Shown here: in pieces, positions 15,763 through 24,168 of the stretch | Layout of the letters: each line of letters begins with the position of its first letter | How positions within the stretch are numbered: the first letter of the stretch is position 1 | DNA from: Microthyrium microscopicum | Lineage: Eukaryota | Direction of reading: 5' to 3' | NCBI GenBank assembly: GCA_010405405.1 | Contig: MU004239.1 | Span: 1,116,001-1,180,000, forward strand | Length of the DNA stretch: 64,000 bases | The notes under the pieces: model-generated | The model's input: the letters and a program-made list of their open reading frames with translations, nothing else | The model's database searches: none | What the model was told of the DNA's origin: nothing | Translations under genes and position numbers: made by a program

Positions 15763-17301
15763 ATTGAAAAGCCAAGGTATCAAAAGAACGATAAAGGCAA
15801 AAGCGAATGAATGAGTTGATATGAGCGGTAATGAGTGAGTTTAGGATCAGCACAGCTGCCTATTTATGTATCTCAAGAACCCCTATGCTTTTCCTCAGCA
15901 TCTTCCTTTACTCTCTTGATTTCAAGTCGAACCGCCTCGCGATGATGACCAAAAGCCATCTTCTTTCGCCATTCTGTCTTTCTCGTTCCAAAAGATGAAA
16001 TTCTGACCTTCTTCAAATTACAACAAGCCAGAGGCTTCCTAGCCAAGACCGACGAACTGACGATGCGGGATAGAGTTGAAGCAAGAAAGAGCCAGAAAGA
16101 GCAAAGATCGACAGGAACACATCCAACCCGGGTTGAAGTTGGAAGCTGAATTGTCCGTAAACACCAGGGGCAAGCTATACTCTGCGCCACTCTTACTACC
16201 ACGGACACATAGTTTGACCAGAAATGGCATCAGGTGCCGTGAAGAAGCCAGATTCAGAAGAAACGATCTGCCGCAGTCGTCCCAAACTGGGATGACCAGG
16301 AACCCATCCAGAGATTCGGTAACAAGTGCTCATCGCCATGTTGCGCCCATCAGGCGAATAAACGTTTCGAAACTCATCATTTGCTATGCGTCAGTAATGA
16401 TGGCTTGGTGGAATTGTATACGGAGCAGTCTTGGTTTGATATGACAAGACATATAGTCTATTCAAACCCTGTTTGTGTCTACTATCTTGATTGATAGAAG
16501 GTATAACGAACTCCAATGCTTGATATTATATCATGCAGTGTCTGGAGAAGAAGCTACGCCTCCGGGTACGGCCCGCACAGATGAGGTTGTCCATCTGCAG
16601 GGTCTGATCGATCGCCAACGCTAGAAATTCATTAGTTGACAATTGTTTTTCACATTAGATCTCACTTTACACATTTTAAGCATTATAGCCGCTATAAAGA
16701 TTATGTTGCTTGGCAATAGAAGACCATTGGAGAACTGGCATGAAGTTGGCCACCAGTCTGTGCTTTCTCAGCCTTCCTGCGGGAAGAACAACGAACATCT
16801 GGGGCTGTATCACGCCATTTTGATGCTGATGTGGTGGAAATACCAGCAACGAGAGAGCATTTAATGCCAAGTGTGCCCAGACTCAGCACGACATGCAAGC
16901 CCAATTGTGCATTTTGATATGTTTTCGAATGAAAACTCGCATCTGAACGGCAAGGATCGCCGTAGCCTTGCCTATTTCGAAAAATGCTGTCCTCAGAAAA
17001 CTCCAACCTTCAGCCTGAGAGGTCTTAATTCACGATGACCAACAACCTTCCGCGCTGGCTTGCAGCTTGTTTTCTTGGCAACTCATTGCTCACAACTGAT
17101 ACGAAAGGCGTCAGTAAGGATGGCGGGAAGATCTCAATATTCATGCAATTGGTGCAGGTTGGAGCGTGAACTGCAGACATTGGACAGCCTTAGCTATTGA
17201 AAATAAAGCCAGTGGTCGGACTTTGAAAAGTTTCGATTTTTCATTGCTGCTTGGTTCTTTTGCTTGCGTCTGTTCGATTTTCTCTCATTTCATCATTTGC
17301 A

Positions 17302-18791
17302 ATGAAGCTCACCACCATCGCAACCACGCTGTTGCTAAGCGTAGTACAAGCCAATGTTGTGAAGAGAGATGCTCAGTTTGCGCAGGGCGAGCCAGTCGAT
17401 GCTACGGGAAAGGGTGGTCCAATTTTAGGTACGAGGAACATGGCCTCTGTATTCAATATTCAAGTAACTGATGTCCTGATAGGTGGCACCAACAAGCAGA
17501 TCGATCTCCAGAACCCTGATGGTCTAGGAGCACAATCTACTGACAACGGAATTGTGCCAAACTTGAAATGGAGCTTCTCTGATTCCAAGACTCGTCTTCT
17601 CAACGGAGGCTGGGTCCGTGAACAAGTCATCACAGATCTCCCTTCATCGCATGATATTGCCGCAGCGCAACAACATCTCAAGAAAGGAGCTCTTCGTGAA
17701 CTTCATTGGCATCGTGTGGTAAGTCCTGTACTTGAACTCATTATTCACAGTTACCTGATAGTTTAGGCCGAATGGGGATTTGTTTACAACGGATCCGTTG
17801 AGATCTCGTCAGTTGACGAGAATGGTAAATATGAAGTTGCCACTCTCAACTATGGAGATATTTGGTACTTCCCCAAAGGTGTTGCCCATACCATCCAAGG
17901 CCTTGCCGATGAGAACGAGTACCTTCTTGTCTTTGACGAATCCAACTTTGACGCTGTTGGTACAACTTTCATGGTTGATGATTGGTTAGCACATACACCA
18001 AAAGGTAAGCTTCTTCCTCTGGACTCTTCTTGAGGTTGAGTTGCAATTATCAACGAACGTTAACATTCCGAGCAGATATCATTGCCAAAAACTTTGGCGT
18101 TGACCCAAGCACCTTCGCCAACCTGCCAACAGCTGACCCATATATCCTACCCGCCAATGTCAGCAAGAGCACTGTCAGCGGTGGAGGAGGAGAATTGACT
18201 GGCAAAGAAACATATGTGTACAGAACTCTTAAATCGCAGCCTGAGCCGGTGCCAGGCAACGGTGGAACTTTCTACAAGATTGACAGCACGAATTTCCCTA
18301 TTAGCAAGACTTTGGCTGCGACTTTTGTCACTCTAAAGCCAGGTGGACTTAGAGAGCTCCACTGGCATCCCAATGTAAGTCATCTCCCCTATATCTCAAA
18401 AGAACTCTTGAACTAATCGGAAACAGGCTGAGGAGTGGCTATACTTCCACAAAGGTCATGCTCGTGCCACCGTCTTCATTGGAAACTCTAATGCCAGAAC
18501 TTTCGACTTCCAGGCCGGTGACACTGCAGCATTCCCAGATAACTCAGGGTATATTCACATTCACATCTCGCACTGCCTTCATTTCTAACCGCTAGTAGTC
18601 ATTACATTGAGAACACCTCTGCAACCGAAGACCTCGTCTGGATTGAGATGTACAAATCAGACCGCGTCGCTGACATCTCTTTGACTCAATGGCTAGCTTT
18701 GACACCAGCTGATATTGTGGCTCAGACCTTGAAGGTTCCACAAAGCTTCGTGGAGCAATTGAAGAAGCAGAAGCAAGTGCTTATCAAATAG
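17302..18791 (+). CDS. Secreted bicupin oxalate decarboxylase/oxidase
   Basis: Signal peptide; two cupin Mn sites (RELHWHRV-AEW..HTIQG and RELHWHPN-AEEW..HYIEN); PNLKWSFSDS; five canonical introns. Confidence 0.92.
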
Positions 18792-19475
18792 ATGGAGTCA
18801 TTACTTGTTCTGTAGTAGATGTTGTGGAATTGTTTGTTATATCAAGTTCAACCAGTTGTGATGGTTGATGTTTGATCATTCTTTTATACGCATTAAAATC
18901 TAATTATAATGTATTCTCTTTTATACCAAATCCCTCGATGCAGTAGTAGGGATCTCCGAACGTGAGACACTGGTTTCGCCGGATCTATCCTGGATATGGC
19001 TCTTCATGCGAGCTCTTCATCAACATATAACTTCCGTCCATTCATATCTTCATACACTCGATACAAAGTATGTCCAGATGACTTGGCATGGTAGAATTTA
19101 AAAGGCCATCGAGGTCGCCGGATTGTTCTTGCTGTCAGCTCAACAGTGCGTCAAAATGCCCAATTCCAGTTGTTTCTGCATAGATCAAGCGCATTGGTAA
19201 AAGGTTTTGGATTTTCACGAGGTAAAGACTGTAAATATATGGATATAAATGCAAGCAATTTCGGTTTTTTGTAATCACCACACATCCGTGGGCGCGTAAA
19301 GTAAATGTATGTCTGGCGACGTTGTTCTTCCATGCGCCCCTTATTTGCCCTTGTGTTGCTGCCCAAGCCAATTTTGCACCGGTTGAGCGGCGCCAGTCTA
19401 ACGCTCTGTAGACTTTAGTTTCACACAAGAGGTGACAGTAACTAAAAGGGGCAGCTCGAAGGTTGGCAGCTAATT

Positions 19476-19730
19476 CTATAAAACATGTTAGCAAAAAAAC
19501 TTTAAAGAGTCGAGTGGTAGGGAAGCTGACCTATTCTCCGAATTAACAAGGCTTGTTTAAAGCCTGGGCGCGCCCGGATTCCTGATCGCCGTTGTCGTAC
19601 TACTAATGGAACCAGCAAATGCCGCTTTGCTCTGAGCTAGACCAAGTGCAAGCGGGCGCGAGACGCCGTCGGAAGGAGGTTTTCTATCCGGTGAAGGAGC
19701 CTCGCTTTCGGCGAGGTTGCGAATTTGTCA
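19476..19730 (-). promoter_or_regulatory. eRF1 3'UTR regulatory module: UGA-CAA stop, 56-codon in-frame extension to TAA (19559-19557), and 3'UTR intron 19530-19476
   Basis: Read directly: TGA CAA ATT..., an open frame to TAA, then AG|GTCAGC..GCTAAC..TATAG| 26 nt after that TAA. Confidence 0.8.
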
Positions 19731-21149
19731 ATCTGCGAGATTTATTAGCTACTTGCATTGCCCATAGCACTTCAAGAATCCTACCGTCATCATCATAGAA
19801 CTCATCATCGTCGTCGAAATCAGCCAATTGCTCAAAATTGAGATTGTAGCGCAGAATGCCGCCAATACCACCGAAACCTTTGACAAACTGGTTGCCCTCG
19901 GAAGATCGATCGGAGACAAATTCCAGTGTCGCACCGAAATTTTGGTAGTTCTCTGCCAACCACTCCAAGAAGGGCATCTGCTCAACAACTTCCATTTCTT
20001 GACCACTTTCTTTGTCCATGAACTTGGTGCGATCTTGCTCATCCTGCTTGGTAGTGTTGATAATGAAATTGGTTCCAGCGGCGTTTTTCAGAGTCCAGCG
20101 AGTCATCTCCAGATTCTCAAATACAATAAGCGTCTCGCAGGCACCAGCCTCCATTGCTTTAAGAGTATCATCGATGCCGTAACAAACTTTTCCAGTGTTC
20201 TGACTAATCTCATCGAAATAAGCATTGATGAGCTTCTTTTCCTGGATAAACTTCACGTTACTGAGAGTCTCGCCGGACAGTTCGATTGCCTGGTTGAAAC
20301 CGTTCTCGCCACCATAGGAAACGTCGACAATTTTGATGACCTTGGATTGCAGACGGTTATCAAACAAATCGGACTGATTGAGATCGTTTTTGAAATCAGC
20401 CGATCCGGCAAGGATAAGACCAGCAACATTGACTTTATCATTGGTGATGAAATTCTGCACAGCTAGCTCTGCGACTTTTCGGACATAGTTGTGACGCTTT
20501 TCCTCTCGAAGACGGGCGAAACGAAGGGCAGATTGACCACCACGACCGTGCTTCTTGGGCAAATCAACCGAAAACTTGTGAACAACTTCGCGAGTGTTGC
20601 CTGAAAGGGTGCCGAAGAGTGATCCGCTACCATCCATGATGATGAATCCAAACTTCTGATCAGAGTCCAACAACTCGCTCAATGCTTCAGTATGGAACTT
20701 GTTGTCGCAGAGATATAGGGAAGTATTGATTGGCTTGAAAGGCTCAAAGTCAATGTTGATTTTTCTTTCCTTGCCTTCTGAAGTAATGATTTCACCACAG
20801 TAGACAACAAGGCCATTTGGCGGGACTTTGGAATATAGTTTCAGACGCTGCTGGGTGGAGGTGATGGCGGAGAGGACTGAAAGACGATTGACGCGAGATT
20901 TGATGTTGGAAGCTGTTCCGAACTCTTCAGCCAACATTTTGGCAGCCCGAGAGACCTGATCCTTAGGTGGAATAATGAGGGATATCATGCTTGTGCCATT
21001 ACCGCGGCTAGGTAAAATAGTTAGCACTAGGCTCGAACAGTGAATGCTGGGAAAGGAAAAACGTACGCAGCCTCTAGACGCTTAATGAGCTTCTTGACCT
21101 TCCAAATCTCAATGTTCTTCTCCGCCTCGTTGGGCTGTGGGGCACTCAT
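19728..21149 (-). CDS. SUP45: Eukaryotic peptide chain release factor 1. Exons 21149-21067, 21007-19785, 19732-19728
   Basis: GTSMISL, TASNIKS, YLCDNKF and GGQ motifs. Splicing the 52-nt intron 19784-19733 gives ..FYDDDD-TGA. Confidence 0.97.
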
Positions 21150-21997
21150 GATGAATTATGCTTTGGGCGGCCGCGCTGAGGAGCACCCTGTGTGACGTGG
21201 AAATTGAAGGGTTTGGCAGACAGTTCTGACGGTGCGTACAGCTATCGTTGGAAGTAGGGCAGCGGAAGAATTGTTCGCAGCCTATGGGCGGTGGATGTGC
21301 CTTTTTAAGGCACTGCGAAAGACAGTGGAGAAGCGATGAAGAAGCAAGAAAGTGTGAGATCGGGTGACGTCCAAGTTAGTGATGGCGAGAATTTATTGTT
21401 GGCTGATTAAGCGCATAGTTGAGGCCTAGCGTCACAATTTACCTACGGAGTAATGACGCCCGACCAGCCTGATTTGGTAGATAGAGTAGCTTACACCTAG
21501 GGATCAAGCTACTATATTCCAGAGCAATAGATTACACACGGCATGCAGGACTTTTAACAGGACTTTTAGAAAGAAGATCCGAAAAGAACCGTAATTATGA
21601 CATGAAAAGTCAGGTGTGGCGCGGAAGTATCACCAGCCACGAACGCCACAAGTAATCCTCATCCACCTGGGCAATGTTCGAAATATTCAGAGAGAGTCAT
21701 GAGAACTCGTCGACACTATGAACTTTCCTCAACTCCAGTACGGACCTCTGCTCACCCGTCATTGTGCAAGTAGCATGTAGGATATGCGCATTCCAGTTTC
21801 ATGAAGAAGGCGCCCTCAATAGAATTTGAGACTGATAAAGGCATTTTACCAAGGACTTTTCGATAACAGTCAATGATATATGGGTACTACAGACGCGTTT
21901 GCTATGCCATTCTCTCGTCAAGAGTGCATGATCTATTTCACTGCTCCTGAAGATCCTCATTAGGACACCCATTTGACACATATGGGCCATATTAACG

Positions 21998-24168
21998 ATG
22001 TCATGGGAGAGGCGGGAGAGGCGGCTCTTCGCATGGAGAAACCCATTCACCAGTGTTCAGCACCTTCAAGTAGGATTTGAATTTCTAGTTGAAGCTTCTT
22101 GAGCTAATCTCGAGTAGAATGTTGCCCAAAAGCGAGTTCATCTTTGCAAGGCGAGCTAAGGCACCAATCTGGCGTTAACGGAGTCTAATCTAGCAGTAGG
22201 TGCTTGACAGTTATTCCTTTGATTGGCAAGTTTTTGCCGTCGCAGCCTCTGGATTCTTCACGGACAGTTATAATCTCTTCGCCACCAACGTTGTAAGGAA
22301 CCTTTCCCAATGCACATGAAAACTCTATTGTTACAAGCCACGCCTCCTACGGAACATTTTACTTTCATGGATTTCCACATGAAACGCACACCCTCTCGTA
22401 GCATATCTCTCGTTGAAGTACGCTAATGAGGAGTTAGATACTTCCAGCGCTGGCCTATGTATACTGGCCAACGGCTACAAGCACTGATAGGGAAGCTACT
22501 ATCAATCTAGTCACATTAGCATCTGCCACTGTAGGGCAGCTGCTATTTGGCTACCTAGCAGATCGATACGGACGGCAGAAACTCTATGGAGTTGAGTTGA
22601 TATTGGTCACCGTTTCTACACTAGGCTTGGCTCAGTGCTCTTATGGCGTGCTGAAATATGATGGCACCACCTCCATGTCCATCCTTGGTTGGATCTTGTT
22701 CTTTAGAACCATTATGGGTTGTGGTATCGGAGCTGAATATCCTTTGAGTGCTGGAATATCTGCAGGTTTGTTTCATCAATCTGGTTTTTGGAATTTGCTA
22801 ACGAATGGGTAGAATGGTCATCATCTCGATCAAGAGCGCGAATGCTAGCAGCTGTGTTCCTCATGCAACCGCTCGGTCAACTCGCGGCTTATGTTGTTGG
22901 CACAATAGTCCTTGTTATCTTGAACCGTCACTATCAACTAGACACTCTTATGGACTCCAAGGATGCAGCACCGATCATTGACGTCTTCTGGAGATGGGTG
23001 ACCGGAATCGGGGCATTACCAGCACTGATCGCGTTGGGCTTTCGACTCTCCATTCCAGAGTCTGGACGCTGGCGACTTGATGTTCAAGGACAGGCTGATC
23101 GAGCTATTCTAGAAACTCATGCACACTTTGGGACGATGACAAGTTTATCGCTAGACGACGATTTAGAGCTCCGAGACAATTCGAGCGACATTAACGTCGA
23201 GCATGAGGCTTTTGGTCACTCTCCGCAACAAATATCGGGTTCATACCTAGCAAGGTACTTGTTCACGGATGGGAACTGGAGATACCTTGCGGGAACGTCA
23301 TTATGCTGGTTCATAGTGGACTTTGTGTATTATGGCCTTCAGATCAATAATCCGCGCTTTTTGGCAAAGTTGTGGAATAGCCATTTACCAAATACCAGAG
23401 TCACCACAACTCCAGCCTGGCTTCCGAATCCTCTTTACTGGGATCCAACGACGTCGCAACCAACAGTTACAATCTACCATGTCCTCATGGAAAACTCCCG
23501 GCACGCCATGATTTCGGTGTCCATAGCTGCGGTTTTGGGCAGCCTTCTTCTGATACAAATCATCGACTATGTGTCTCGACGAAAGTTTCTCATCTGGTCG
23601 TTCCTCGGACTCGCGGTCTTAACTGCTGCTATGGGAGTGAGCTATTTGTATACATTCGGCACTTCACACTACTGGATCACGCTCACACTATTCGTACTTT
23701 GTCAGTTCTTCTTCAACCTCGGTCCAAATACTTTGACGTTCATTGTAAGTCTCAATTACACGCCACACTACCACGAGCTGACAAATACAGATCCCAGCGG
23801 AAATATTTCCCACCCCGATCCGTTGCACCTGTCATGGTATCTCTGCTGCAGCAGGAAAGTTGAGCTCTGTGATTGTTCAATCGATGCTCATACGCTTGCA
23901 ATTTGGAAACCACTCATTACGAGACCTGGATTCGAATGGCATGGGCTGGATGCTGATCATATTTTCTACAGTACTGCTTCTTGGGGCCTTTTGTGCTTGG
24001 CTGTGGATTCCAGAAGTACAGAGCAACACGAGACTGGAAGGCAGCTGGATCCTACCATCCAAGTCTCTCGAGGAGTTGGCTGTCGGCAAGACAAGAACAG
24101 AGAGGGAGGCTATAAACGGCCTTGACGGCTTAAGGAGGCGATTCAGAGCTGCTACTAGCCCGAACTAG
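21998..24168 (+). CDS. PHO84-type phosphate:H+ symporter (MFS). Exons 21998-22069, 22118-22150, 22200-22292, 22438-22765, 22813-23744, 23791-24168
   Basis: ASGFFTDSYNLF, FGYLADRYGRQKLYGVEL, GIGAEYPLSA..SAEW, AAVFLMQPLGQ and FFFNLGPNTLTFIIPAEIFPT..RCTCHGISAAAGK. The first two exons are less certain. Confidence 0.88.

Follow-up and report, generated by a model that had tools for sequence, protein, structure and literature searches.

The eRF1 locus of a filamentous ascomycete-like fungus as a probable readthrough and mRNA decay feedback module

Known eRF1 circuits and the locus described here

The abundance of the release factor eRF1 governs the fidelity of stop codons throughout the cell, and control of eRF1 is a basic homeostat. 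Here we describe the eRF1 gene on the minus strand of a 64,000-nt stretch of DNA ("the window": contig MU004239.1, positions 1,116,001 to 1,180,000, of the Microthyrium microscopicum assembly GCA_010405405.1), the host being a filamentous ascomycete-like fungus, and we propose that this locus is probably a negative feedback module combining stop-codon readthrough with nonsense-mediated decay (NMD), of the kind known from Neurospora crassa erf1 and plant eRF1-1. Similar circuits are reportedly proposed for many fungi in the abstract that describes the N. crassa case. The literature behind this proposal, which the original prediction had invoked for fungi and plants alike, is indeed in print, as the title of Kurilla 2020 (FEBS Lett 594:3504) names the N. 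crassa circuit, the article is cited in excerpts of PMC10578600 and PMC9809470, and the available portion of Nyiko 2017 (PMC5397192) shows the plant one. In N. crassa, judging by the titles of Kurilla 2020 and of Zhang and Sachs 2015 (Genetics 200:1133), the same gene couples readthrough with a 3'UTR (3' untranslated region) intron that feeds NMD; this circuit is most likely the direct ortholog of that in the window, and the two hosts would appear to belong to the same fungal subphylum. The circuit is already published for N. crassa and plants, and the present locus adds an ortholog-like member.

As far as excerpts of Nyiko 2017 (PMC5397192), the basis for all that is said of plants in this paragraph, describe it, the mRNA of plant eRF1-1 is protected by readthrough, which becomes less frequent at high eRF1, while NMD increases. 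The plant "RT-NMD 3'UTR" is like the window in that UGA is followed by CAA, and in the model by which readthrough clears the exon junction complex (EJC). In both, the NMD-inducing 3'UTR intron lies more than 50 nt past the stop (130 nt in Arabidopsis eRF1-1, 197 nt in the window), and the next in-frame stop is found just 5' of that intron (less than 25 nt in plants, 26 nt in the window). There are differences as well: plants keep CAAUCA almost invariantly, whereas related fungal loci keep just the C at position +4, along with a hairpin; a second eRF1 paralog, which is unregulated, exists in plants; the extension of plants shows no conservation, activity or motif, whereas the last 7 residues are conserved in fungal relatives; and the fungal extension crosses the exon junction in 13 of 32 loci, unlike that of plants, which stops before it. 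The authors of the plant study see their circuit as an independent invention; given how nearly the plant and fungal geometries coincide, one may ask whether it arose by convergence, as they propose, or is old.

Likenesses extend to other recoding systems. In alphaviruses and several plant viruses, UGA-CGG/CUA is followed by a 3' stem-loop, and the stem raises readthrough 3- to 14-fold, according to the portion of Firth 2011 (PMC3159437) on which this comparison rests. The eRF1 loci share with these "type II" signals the UGA-C, with CGG as the commonest triplet in relatives (23/56), as well as a conserved stem-loop region less than about 100 nt past the stop that shows compensatory changes; they differ in the spacer (7-8 nt in viruses, 11 nt in the window and 9-14 nt in relatives), in the first stem (12 or more bp in viruses, 5-9 bp in eRF1 loci), and in that a cellular gene is concerned here, whose readthrough product is probably not the point. 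Save for its 11-nt spacer, what lies behind the eRF1 stop is a conserved stem-loop with compensatory substitutions of the type described in Firth 2011. In bacterial RF2 (prfB), with its +1 frameshift, a weak stop within the mRNA likewise lets a release factor gauge how much of itself is present, as recounted in a passage of Nyiko 2017. Recoding, however, makes the functional protein in RF2, whereas in the eRF1 module termination makes the protein and recoding would protect the mRNA; NMD, moreover, is absent in bacteria, unlike in the proposed eRF1 module.

Layout of the eRF1 gene and splicing of its transcript

All that the proposed module needs at the sequence level, namely an eRF1 gene, a UGA-C stop, a hairpin, an open extension and the stop-to-junction geometry, is present in the window and conserved, and splicing is seen in RNA; the layout of the circuit known from N. 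crassa and seed plants is hence found in another fungus together with RNA evidence of splicing. The structural premises on which the original prediction had built its autoregulation model (eRF1, UGA-C, an open extension, and an intron spliced more than 50 nt past the first stop and 26 nt past the second) are borne out. The features are given below in transcript order, with reference to a contig assembled from a public sequencing run, X1.

21150 to 21336, minus strand: eRF1 5'UTR; 21336 is where the RNA contig gives way to adapter letters
21067 to 21149, minus strand: eRF1 exon 1, with ATG at 21149-21147; 27 codons plus 2 nt
21008 to 21066, minus strand: eRF1 intron 1, 59 nt, GTACGT..TGCTAAC..TAG; skipped exactly in the X1 contig
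19785 to 21007, minus strand: eRF1 exon 2, carrying eRF1_1, eRF1_2 and eRF1_3 (Pfam)
19733 to 19784, minus strand: eRF1 intron 2, 52 nt, phase 1, 2 nt 5' of the stop codon; skipped exactly in the X1 contig
19727 to 19730, minus strand: weak stop UGA plus C (UGA-CAA-AUU), from the sequence; TGA-C in 49 of 49 related loci at 73% identity or more
19560 to 19727, minus strand: putative readthrough extension, 56 sense codons from CAA, ending ...NPGAPRL
19557 to 19559, minus strand: second stop UAA, 26 nt 5' of the exon junction
19476 to 19530, minus strand: 3'UTR intron, 55 nt, GTCAGC..TGCTAAC..TATAG; skipped exactly in the X1 contig

The minus-strand gene running from 21149 to 19728 is eRF1 in three exons, as read from the sequence and from Pfam domains eRF1_1 (5e-25), eRF1_2 (3.7e-47) and eRF1_3 (1.9e-34), all well above cut-off, so that the identity assigned to this gene in the original prediction stands. 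Reading of the sequence found no upstream ATG within 21150-21336, 5' of the ATG at 21149, and the contig end and its adapter letters suggest a 5'UTR length of 187 nt. Exon 3 completes the last Asp codon (frame ...D D D D), after which comes TGA at 19730-19728. The 3'UTR exon junction lies 197 nt past the UGA and 26 nt past the UAA, and upon rechecking the sequence every coordinate and distance reported earlier for this region was found to hold.

Evidence on RNA came from mapping two public sequencing runs, X1 and X2, neither of them recorded as RNA, over 18900-21500. Run X1 yielded a single 4063-nt contig (word depth 821.5) that shows zero mismatches and skips exactly 19476-19530, 19733-19784 and 21008-21066, each skip having CT..AC ends on the plus strand, which is GT..AG on the strand of the gene. 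Because three GT..AG introns are skipped, the contig represents spliced minus-strand RNA from which all three introns have been removed. It spans at least 202 nt on either side of the 3'UTR intron, and a single assembled molecule shows both the eRF1 coding sequence and the removal of this intron, which settles the splicing of the introns, including the one at 19530-19476, that the original prediction had left for RNA data to confirm. The same prediction would have failed with a poly(A) site upstream of the 3'UTR intron, an objection that is countered in effect by the continuation of the X1 contig past the intron. Run X2 provided one 171-nt coding piece (19972-20142, depth 2.9) and carries nothing on the 3'UTR.

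Two further observations concern intron 2, whose boundary reads G/gt...ag/AT TGA C. If this intron were retained, the frame would run to TAG at 19686-19684, 153 nt before the 3'UTR junction, and this form would be NMD-prone too. A C/D-box snoRNA at 19726-19812 of the minus strand was considered and rejected, as the matches to sR1 (20.3 bits) and TtnuCD22 (20.8 bits) compare with gathering scores of 45 and 85 and were taken as chance; these sub-threshold matches, which also overlie intron 2, probably result from TGATGA-like repeats in the GAT/GAC-rich codons of the acidic tail.

Stop context, RNA structure and open frame in related loci

Metagenome contigs were searched with the C-terminal 200 residues of the protein, which gave 592 pattern matches, 442 of them encoding a relative; the best 80 were kept, and 79 of these were usable (L068 was left out as too short). 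Judging by their identity, the related loci appear to be Pezizomycotina-like. GAT-TGA-C is the ending of every one of the 49 loci at 73% identity or more, whereas the 30 loci of lower identity comprise 6 with TGA-C, 1 with TGA-T and 23 with TAA or TAG, where the next base is mostly A. Among the 56 TGA-C/T loci, the position of intron 2 is used in 20 and absent in 36, and in these 36 the stop comes directly after the acidic tail. The triplet after the stop (n=56, that is, 55 TGA-C loci and the window) is CGG in 23, CAA in 12, CAG in 11 and another in 10, and only the C at +4 is kept. The emphasis placed earlier on UGA-CAA as the leaky context was consequently right as to the +4 C, which is kept in relatives, and too narrow as to CAA. 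Selenocysteine at the UGA was considered and rejected, fungi being described in an excerpt of PMC4207609 as lacking the machinery.

Behind the stop, three RNA elements were recognized:

19700 to 19716, minus strand: hairpin 1, CCUCGC / 5-nt loop CGAAA / GCGAGG, starting 11 nt past the stop codon, in the minimum free energy (MFE) structure
19670 to 19690, minus strand: hairpin 2, with base CGGA/UCCG, from the RNAalifold consensus
19658 to 19664, minus strand: strand c, GUCUCGC, able to form a long helix with the 3' arm of hairpin 1 (19705-19699), with hairpin 2 enclosed

Folding of the first 48 nt gives hairpin 1 as the MFE structure. In a simple scan, 56/56 TGA-C/T loci, versus 0/23 loci with other stops, had a GC-rich hairpin of at least 5 bp whose start lies 12-17 nt from the stop's first base. 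The pattern CCUCG[CU]-N4-9-[GA]CGAGG occurs 48 times on the plus strand of 309 kb of loci, in all cases at offset 14 from the stop, and once in the 64-kb window, where the reverse-complement reading of the same palindromic site matches too. One pair of this stem varies between C-G (36), U-G (7) and U-A (6). In alignment A1 the outer pairs 13-48 and 14-47 are unpaired in 28 and 42 of 53 distinct rows, respectively, and are not part of a general stem; alignment A4 was excluded from the pair counts, given that the 3' arms of divergent hairpins are out of register in it. Within the main group covariation is weak (the score was reached by 13 of 500 shuffles), as the stem hardly varies, and support for hairpin 1 comes instead from the single pair that varies, from the hairpin's conserved position and from stems of other make in the same place in other lineages, such as GGCUCC/GGAGCC in L052 and L065, GGCUC/GAGCC in L053, L056, L009 and L010, and stems of 8-9 bp in another clade.

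The base of hairpin 2 shows a compensatory change, CGGA/UCCG in the window versus CAGA/UCUG in relatives (RNAalifold, 19 sequences), and reads CACUC/GAGUG in a further clade. The counterpart of strand c in relatives is CYUCGC, and the helix between it and the 3' arm of hairpin 1 has 82% of cells paired, versus 37-51% with a slid partner, with 0 of 500 shuffles reaching any of the measures; pair 35-78 of this long helix is A-U in 9, C-G in 6 and U-G in 1. According to our own reading of constrained folds, the long helix forms in the folded main-clade sequences once the first 20 nt are blocked, and is present in 8 of 17 sequences with those nucleotides free. A covariance model built from 19 sequences gave 51 primary matches, each of which starts at the stop, and none elsewhere in 373 kb, 19 of the 51 being the training sequences, which match by construction. 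Rfam holds no relevant family for this structured region, and a literature search that took in neither the full text of Kurilla 2020 nor Nyiko 2017's supplements found no description of a stem-loop behind the stop of fungal eRF1. This conserved structure past the stop, together with the extension's conserved end, discussed below, are additions to the original prediction and the parts worth following up.

Four cDNA-like loci of 63-67% identity (L052, L053, L056 and L065), probably from another fungal group as far as their sequences indicate, have TGA-C, the hairpin GGCUC(C)/(G)GAGCC at the same distance, and extensions of 90-118 codons; next to this hairpin is a second one with compensatory changes (CCGUCC/GGGCGG, CCUCCC/GGGAGG, CCAUCC/GGGUGG). 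Since these loci share the module, it may predate the window's own group.

As for the open frame, 56 open codons alone have a probability of about 0.95^56 = 0.05 at the 47.6% G+C of the window (our own arithmetic) and are unremarkable by themselves, and other open frames of 44-131 codons are found nearby. Taken alone, the window would thus fit a 3'UTR of the ordinary sort in which an open frame and an intron occur by chance; conservation contradicts this explanation, as does the published orthologous circuit, and we consider its probability practically negligible. What raises the feature above chance is that TGA-C is kept in 49/49 loci, that frame 0 runs for 48 codons or more without a stop in 53/53 and that the hairpin stands at a fixed distance in 56/56. 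The frame test was performed on 53 distinct TGA-C/T sequences including the window, after removal of 2 duplicates and skipping of 2 loci that run off their contig. The median length of frame 0 was 74 codons and the maximum 198, whereas frame +1 was open for at least 48 codons in 4/53 sequences (median 16) and frame +2 in 3/53 (median 5).

Introns in the 3'UTR of relatives were predicted in 32 distinct loci, at a score of 12 or more, and all the predicted junctions are at least 134 nt past the first stop. Once the sequences are spliced in silico, 17 loci have their next frame-0 stop 0-35 nt ahead of the junction, 13 have it past the junction, and 2 have it further upstream. The first two arrangements are seen in 0/32 loci for frame +1 and in 1/32 for frame +2. 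Whether the next stop is near the junction or past it, a ribosome reading through would run over the site of the EJC either way. The original prediction had called for a look at this geometry across relatives, and conservation is what was found: 30 of the 32 metagenome loci with a well-scoring predicted intron fit, and do so in frame 0 only. Two cDNA-like loci testify independently to splicing in other species: the 54-nt intron present in L038 (GTAAGT..CTGAC..CAG) and the 58-nt one of L028 are precisely what L031 lacks, and L022 is without about 50 nt at the predicted intron of L019, in a less clean alignment. In seven loci (L008, L017, L019, L020, L016, L021 and L074) the second stop TAA is part of a GTAAG with the score of an alternative 5' splice site, one that shares the acceptor of the 3'UTR intron; use of this donor would delete the second stop, and the cDNA-like L022 does not use it.

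Selection thus holds together stop context, hairpin, open frame and stop-to-junction distance across about 55 related loci. These yield a compact sequence rule (UGA-C, a hairpin at +11, and a frame 0 that stays open until 35 nt or less from a 3'UTR junction) which gene callers ignore and which could aid the annotation of eRF1 regulation in fungal genomes.

On this basis, the following sequence of events can be proposed. Ribosomes would reach a weak UGA-C, where eRF1 would compete with a near-cognate tRNA, and the hairpin 11 nt past the stop would sit about at the mRNA entrance of the ribosome. With plentiful eRF1, termination would prevail, and an EJC deposited about 20-24 nt 5' of the junction, that is, about 170 nt past the stop, would stay in place and lead to Upf1-dependent decay. 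With scarce eRF1, more ribosomes would read through the 56 codons to the UAA located 26 nt before the junction, and the front edge of such a ribosome would displace the EJC, so that the mRNA might escape decay and yield normal eRF1 in later rounds. The net outcome would be homeostasis of eRF1 and of termination efficiency.

We acknowledge that a number of points weigh against this proposal. For this organism, we infer readthrough, sensitivity to Upf1 and the EJC, and feedback by the level of eRF1. Contigs drop rare variants and give no isoform ratios, poly(A) site or expression level. The X1 contig extends about 1770 nt below 18900, where it has probably merged with the transcript of a convergent cupin gene, so that the 3' end of the eRF1 mRNA is not fixed by it, and the mRNA might attract NMD simply by having a long 3'UTR past the second stop. 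The related loci are metagenome contigs and are not phylogenetically independent; in 20 of the 56 TGA-C/T loci the stop was placed by assuming a GT..AG intron at the phase-1 position of intron 2 of the window, and that of L042 was corrected by hand. The 3'UTR introns of relatives derive from a scored GT..AG heuristic of our own, and the top-scoring intron of L025 and L040 does not fit, although a lower-ranked candidate fits in both. In the window, only 4 of the 6 positions of CAAAUU agree with CARYYA, the consensus of plants, and the fold of hairpin 1, at -12 kcal/mol (z = -1.3), is not unusually stable.

The conservation data also bear on two other explanations of the region past the stop. 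The 3'UTR intron could be a constitutive trigger of NMD, with no role for readthrough and with the open frame and stop context as by-products of RNA elements, since the conserved hairpins could have another purpose. The earlier work of Zhang and Sachs reportedly describes 3'UTR-intron NMD of N. crassa erf1 without invoking readthrough. That N. crassa 3'UTR-intron NMD requires EJC factors, as an excerpt of PMC10578600 states, agrees with this explanation. It is hard to reconcile, however, with a frame 0 that is open in 53/53 sequences while frames +1 and +2 close early, with a next stop that tracks the junction in 30/32 loci versus 0/32 and 1/32 in the other frames, with UGA-C being kept in 49/49, and with the synonymous-only change at the end of the extension described below, which indicates translation, and we find it very unlikely. 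Alternatively, the structure could act directly on termination or NMD, tuning either as a site of protein binding or of pausing, for instance by slowing termination and favouring Upf1 recruitment. Two supported alternative pairings of one strand do suggest a switch rather than a simple roadblock, and the spacer of 11 nt departs from the 7-8 nt of viral stimulators (Firth 2011, PMC3159437, in part); the hairpin, on the other hand, co-occurs perfectly with UGA-C and a long open frame (56/56 versus 0/23), which in the same source is the signature of a readthrough stimulator, and to a direct tuning element we accordingly give very little weight.

The extension peptide and the neighbouring genes

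The 56-residue extension contains no Pfam family, and most of it appears, from its sequence evolution, to be a spacer, as in plants. Differences between L004 and L005 by codon position number 38, 32 and 42 in the extension versus 3, 3 and 61 in the coding sequence. In the pair L017 and L019 they number 2, 4 and 2 versus 2, 2 and 44. The very end of the extension has a different history. In one clade, 11 of 12 loci retain the heptapeptide RPSPLRS, encoded by 9 different nucleotide versions; the 11 columns that vary among these are synonymous throughout and include a serine codon switch (AGC/TCG). The residues just upstream are unconserved. In another clade TLRLSRL is kept in 6 of 7 loci, with AGA, AGG or CGA as the Arg codon and TAA or TAG as the stop. 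Selection on a peptide needs the peptide to be made, and this conservation therefore points to readthrough in vivo in relatives, whose extension is probably translated according to this indirect evidence.

Type 1 peroxisomal targeting signals (PTS1) follow the consensus [SAC][KRH][LM]. Extensions end in -SRL, -ARL or -AHL in L008, L011, L017, L019, L020, L022, L074, L021, L042 and L046. The end of the window's own extension (19560-19568) is -PRL and falls outside this consensus, and the other clade ends in RPSPLRS(V/M)(M/T)T(A/T)S, that is, -TAS or similar. That the extension ends are peroxisomal signals or degrons is a guess.

It is conceivable that readthrough mainly serves to make a C-terminally extended eRF1 isoform with a targeting signal or degron, protection from NMD being secondary or additional. 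Such an isoform would explain the purifying selection at the peptide level (TLRLSRL in 6/7, RPSPLRS in 11/12) and the 10 loci whose final tripeptide fits the PTS1 consensus, and PTS1 signals made by readthrough are known in fungi (Stiebler 2014, PMC4207609, in the portion consulted), where, as in the present loci, UGA is followed by C, the 10 related loci having a [SA][RH]L-like end. The Stiebler motif, however, is UGA-CU, as opposed to UGA-CAA in the window and UGA-CG or UGA-CA across these loci, and CUG follows the stop in just 3 of 56 relatives. The window's -PRL is not canonical, the other large clade with its -TAS or similar leaves no single shared signal, the extension outside the 5' hairpin region and the end lacks codon-position bias (L004/L005), and the plant extension is unconserved and inactive (Nyiko 2017, PMC5397192, in excerpt). 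The main text of Stiebler 2014 does not name eRF1, and a literature search whose bounds excluded the Nyiko 2017 supplements and the full Kurilla 2020 found no eRF1 among readthrough-PTS1 proteins. This explanation would leave the stop-to-junction geometry unaccounted for, and we regard it as unlikely.

A reading with a modest chance of being right, put forward here tentatively, joins a three-strand RNA switch behind the UGA with a functional extended protein. GCGAGG would pair either with CCUCGC upstream, forming the hairpin at the ribosome entrance, or with CYUCGC downstream, forming the long helix around hairpin 2, and this switch would set the sensitivity of the competition between eRF1 and tRNA. 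The last residues (-SRL, -ARL or -AHL, with -PRL in the window, or RPSPLRS... in the other clade) would act as a peroxisomal or degradation signal, and this signal would clear extended, possibly interfering eRF1 from the cytosol. Neither an RNA switch nor a functional extension end of fungal eRF1 was found in print as far as we searched, the full text of Kurilla 2020 lying beyond that search. The hairpin arms, strand c and the last residues of the extension are in any case mutational targets for feedback sensitivity.

Two genes neighbour eRF1. At about 17227-18791 on the plus strand there is a convergent gene with two Cupin_1 matches (1.1e-08 and 3.2e-07); its start resembles a signal peptide, and from its sequence it looks like a bicupin that is secreted. 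Its stop is about 680 nt from the eRF1 3'UTR junction, and the 3' ends of the two genes may overlap, as the X1 contig appears to continue from eRF1 into the cupin gene. Upstream of eRF1 and divergent from it, an open frame at 22438-22812 on the plus strand has MFS_1 / Sugar_tr transporter matches.

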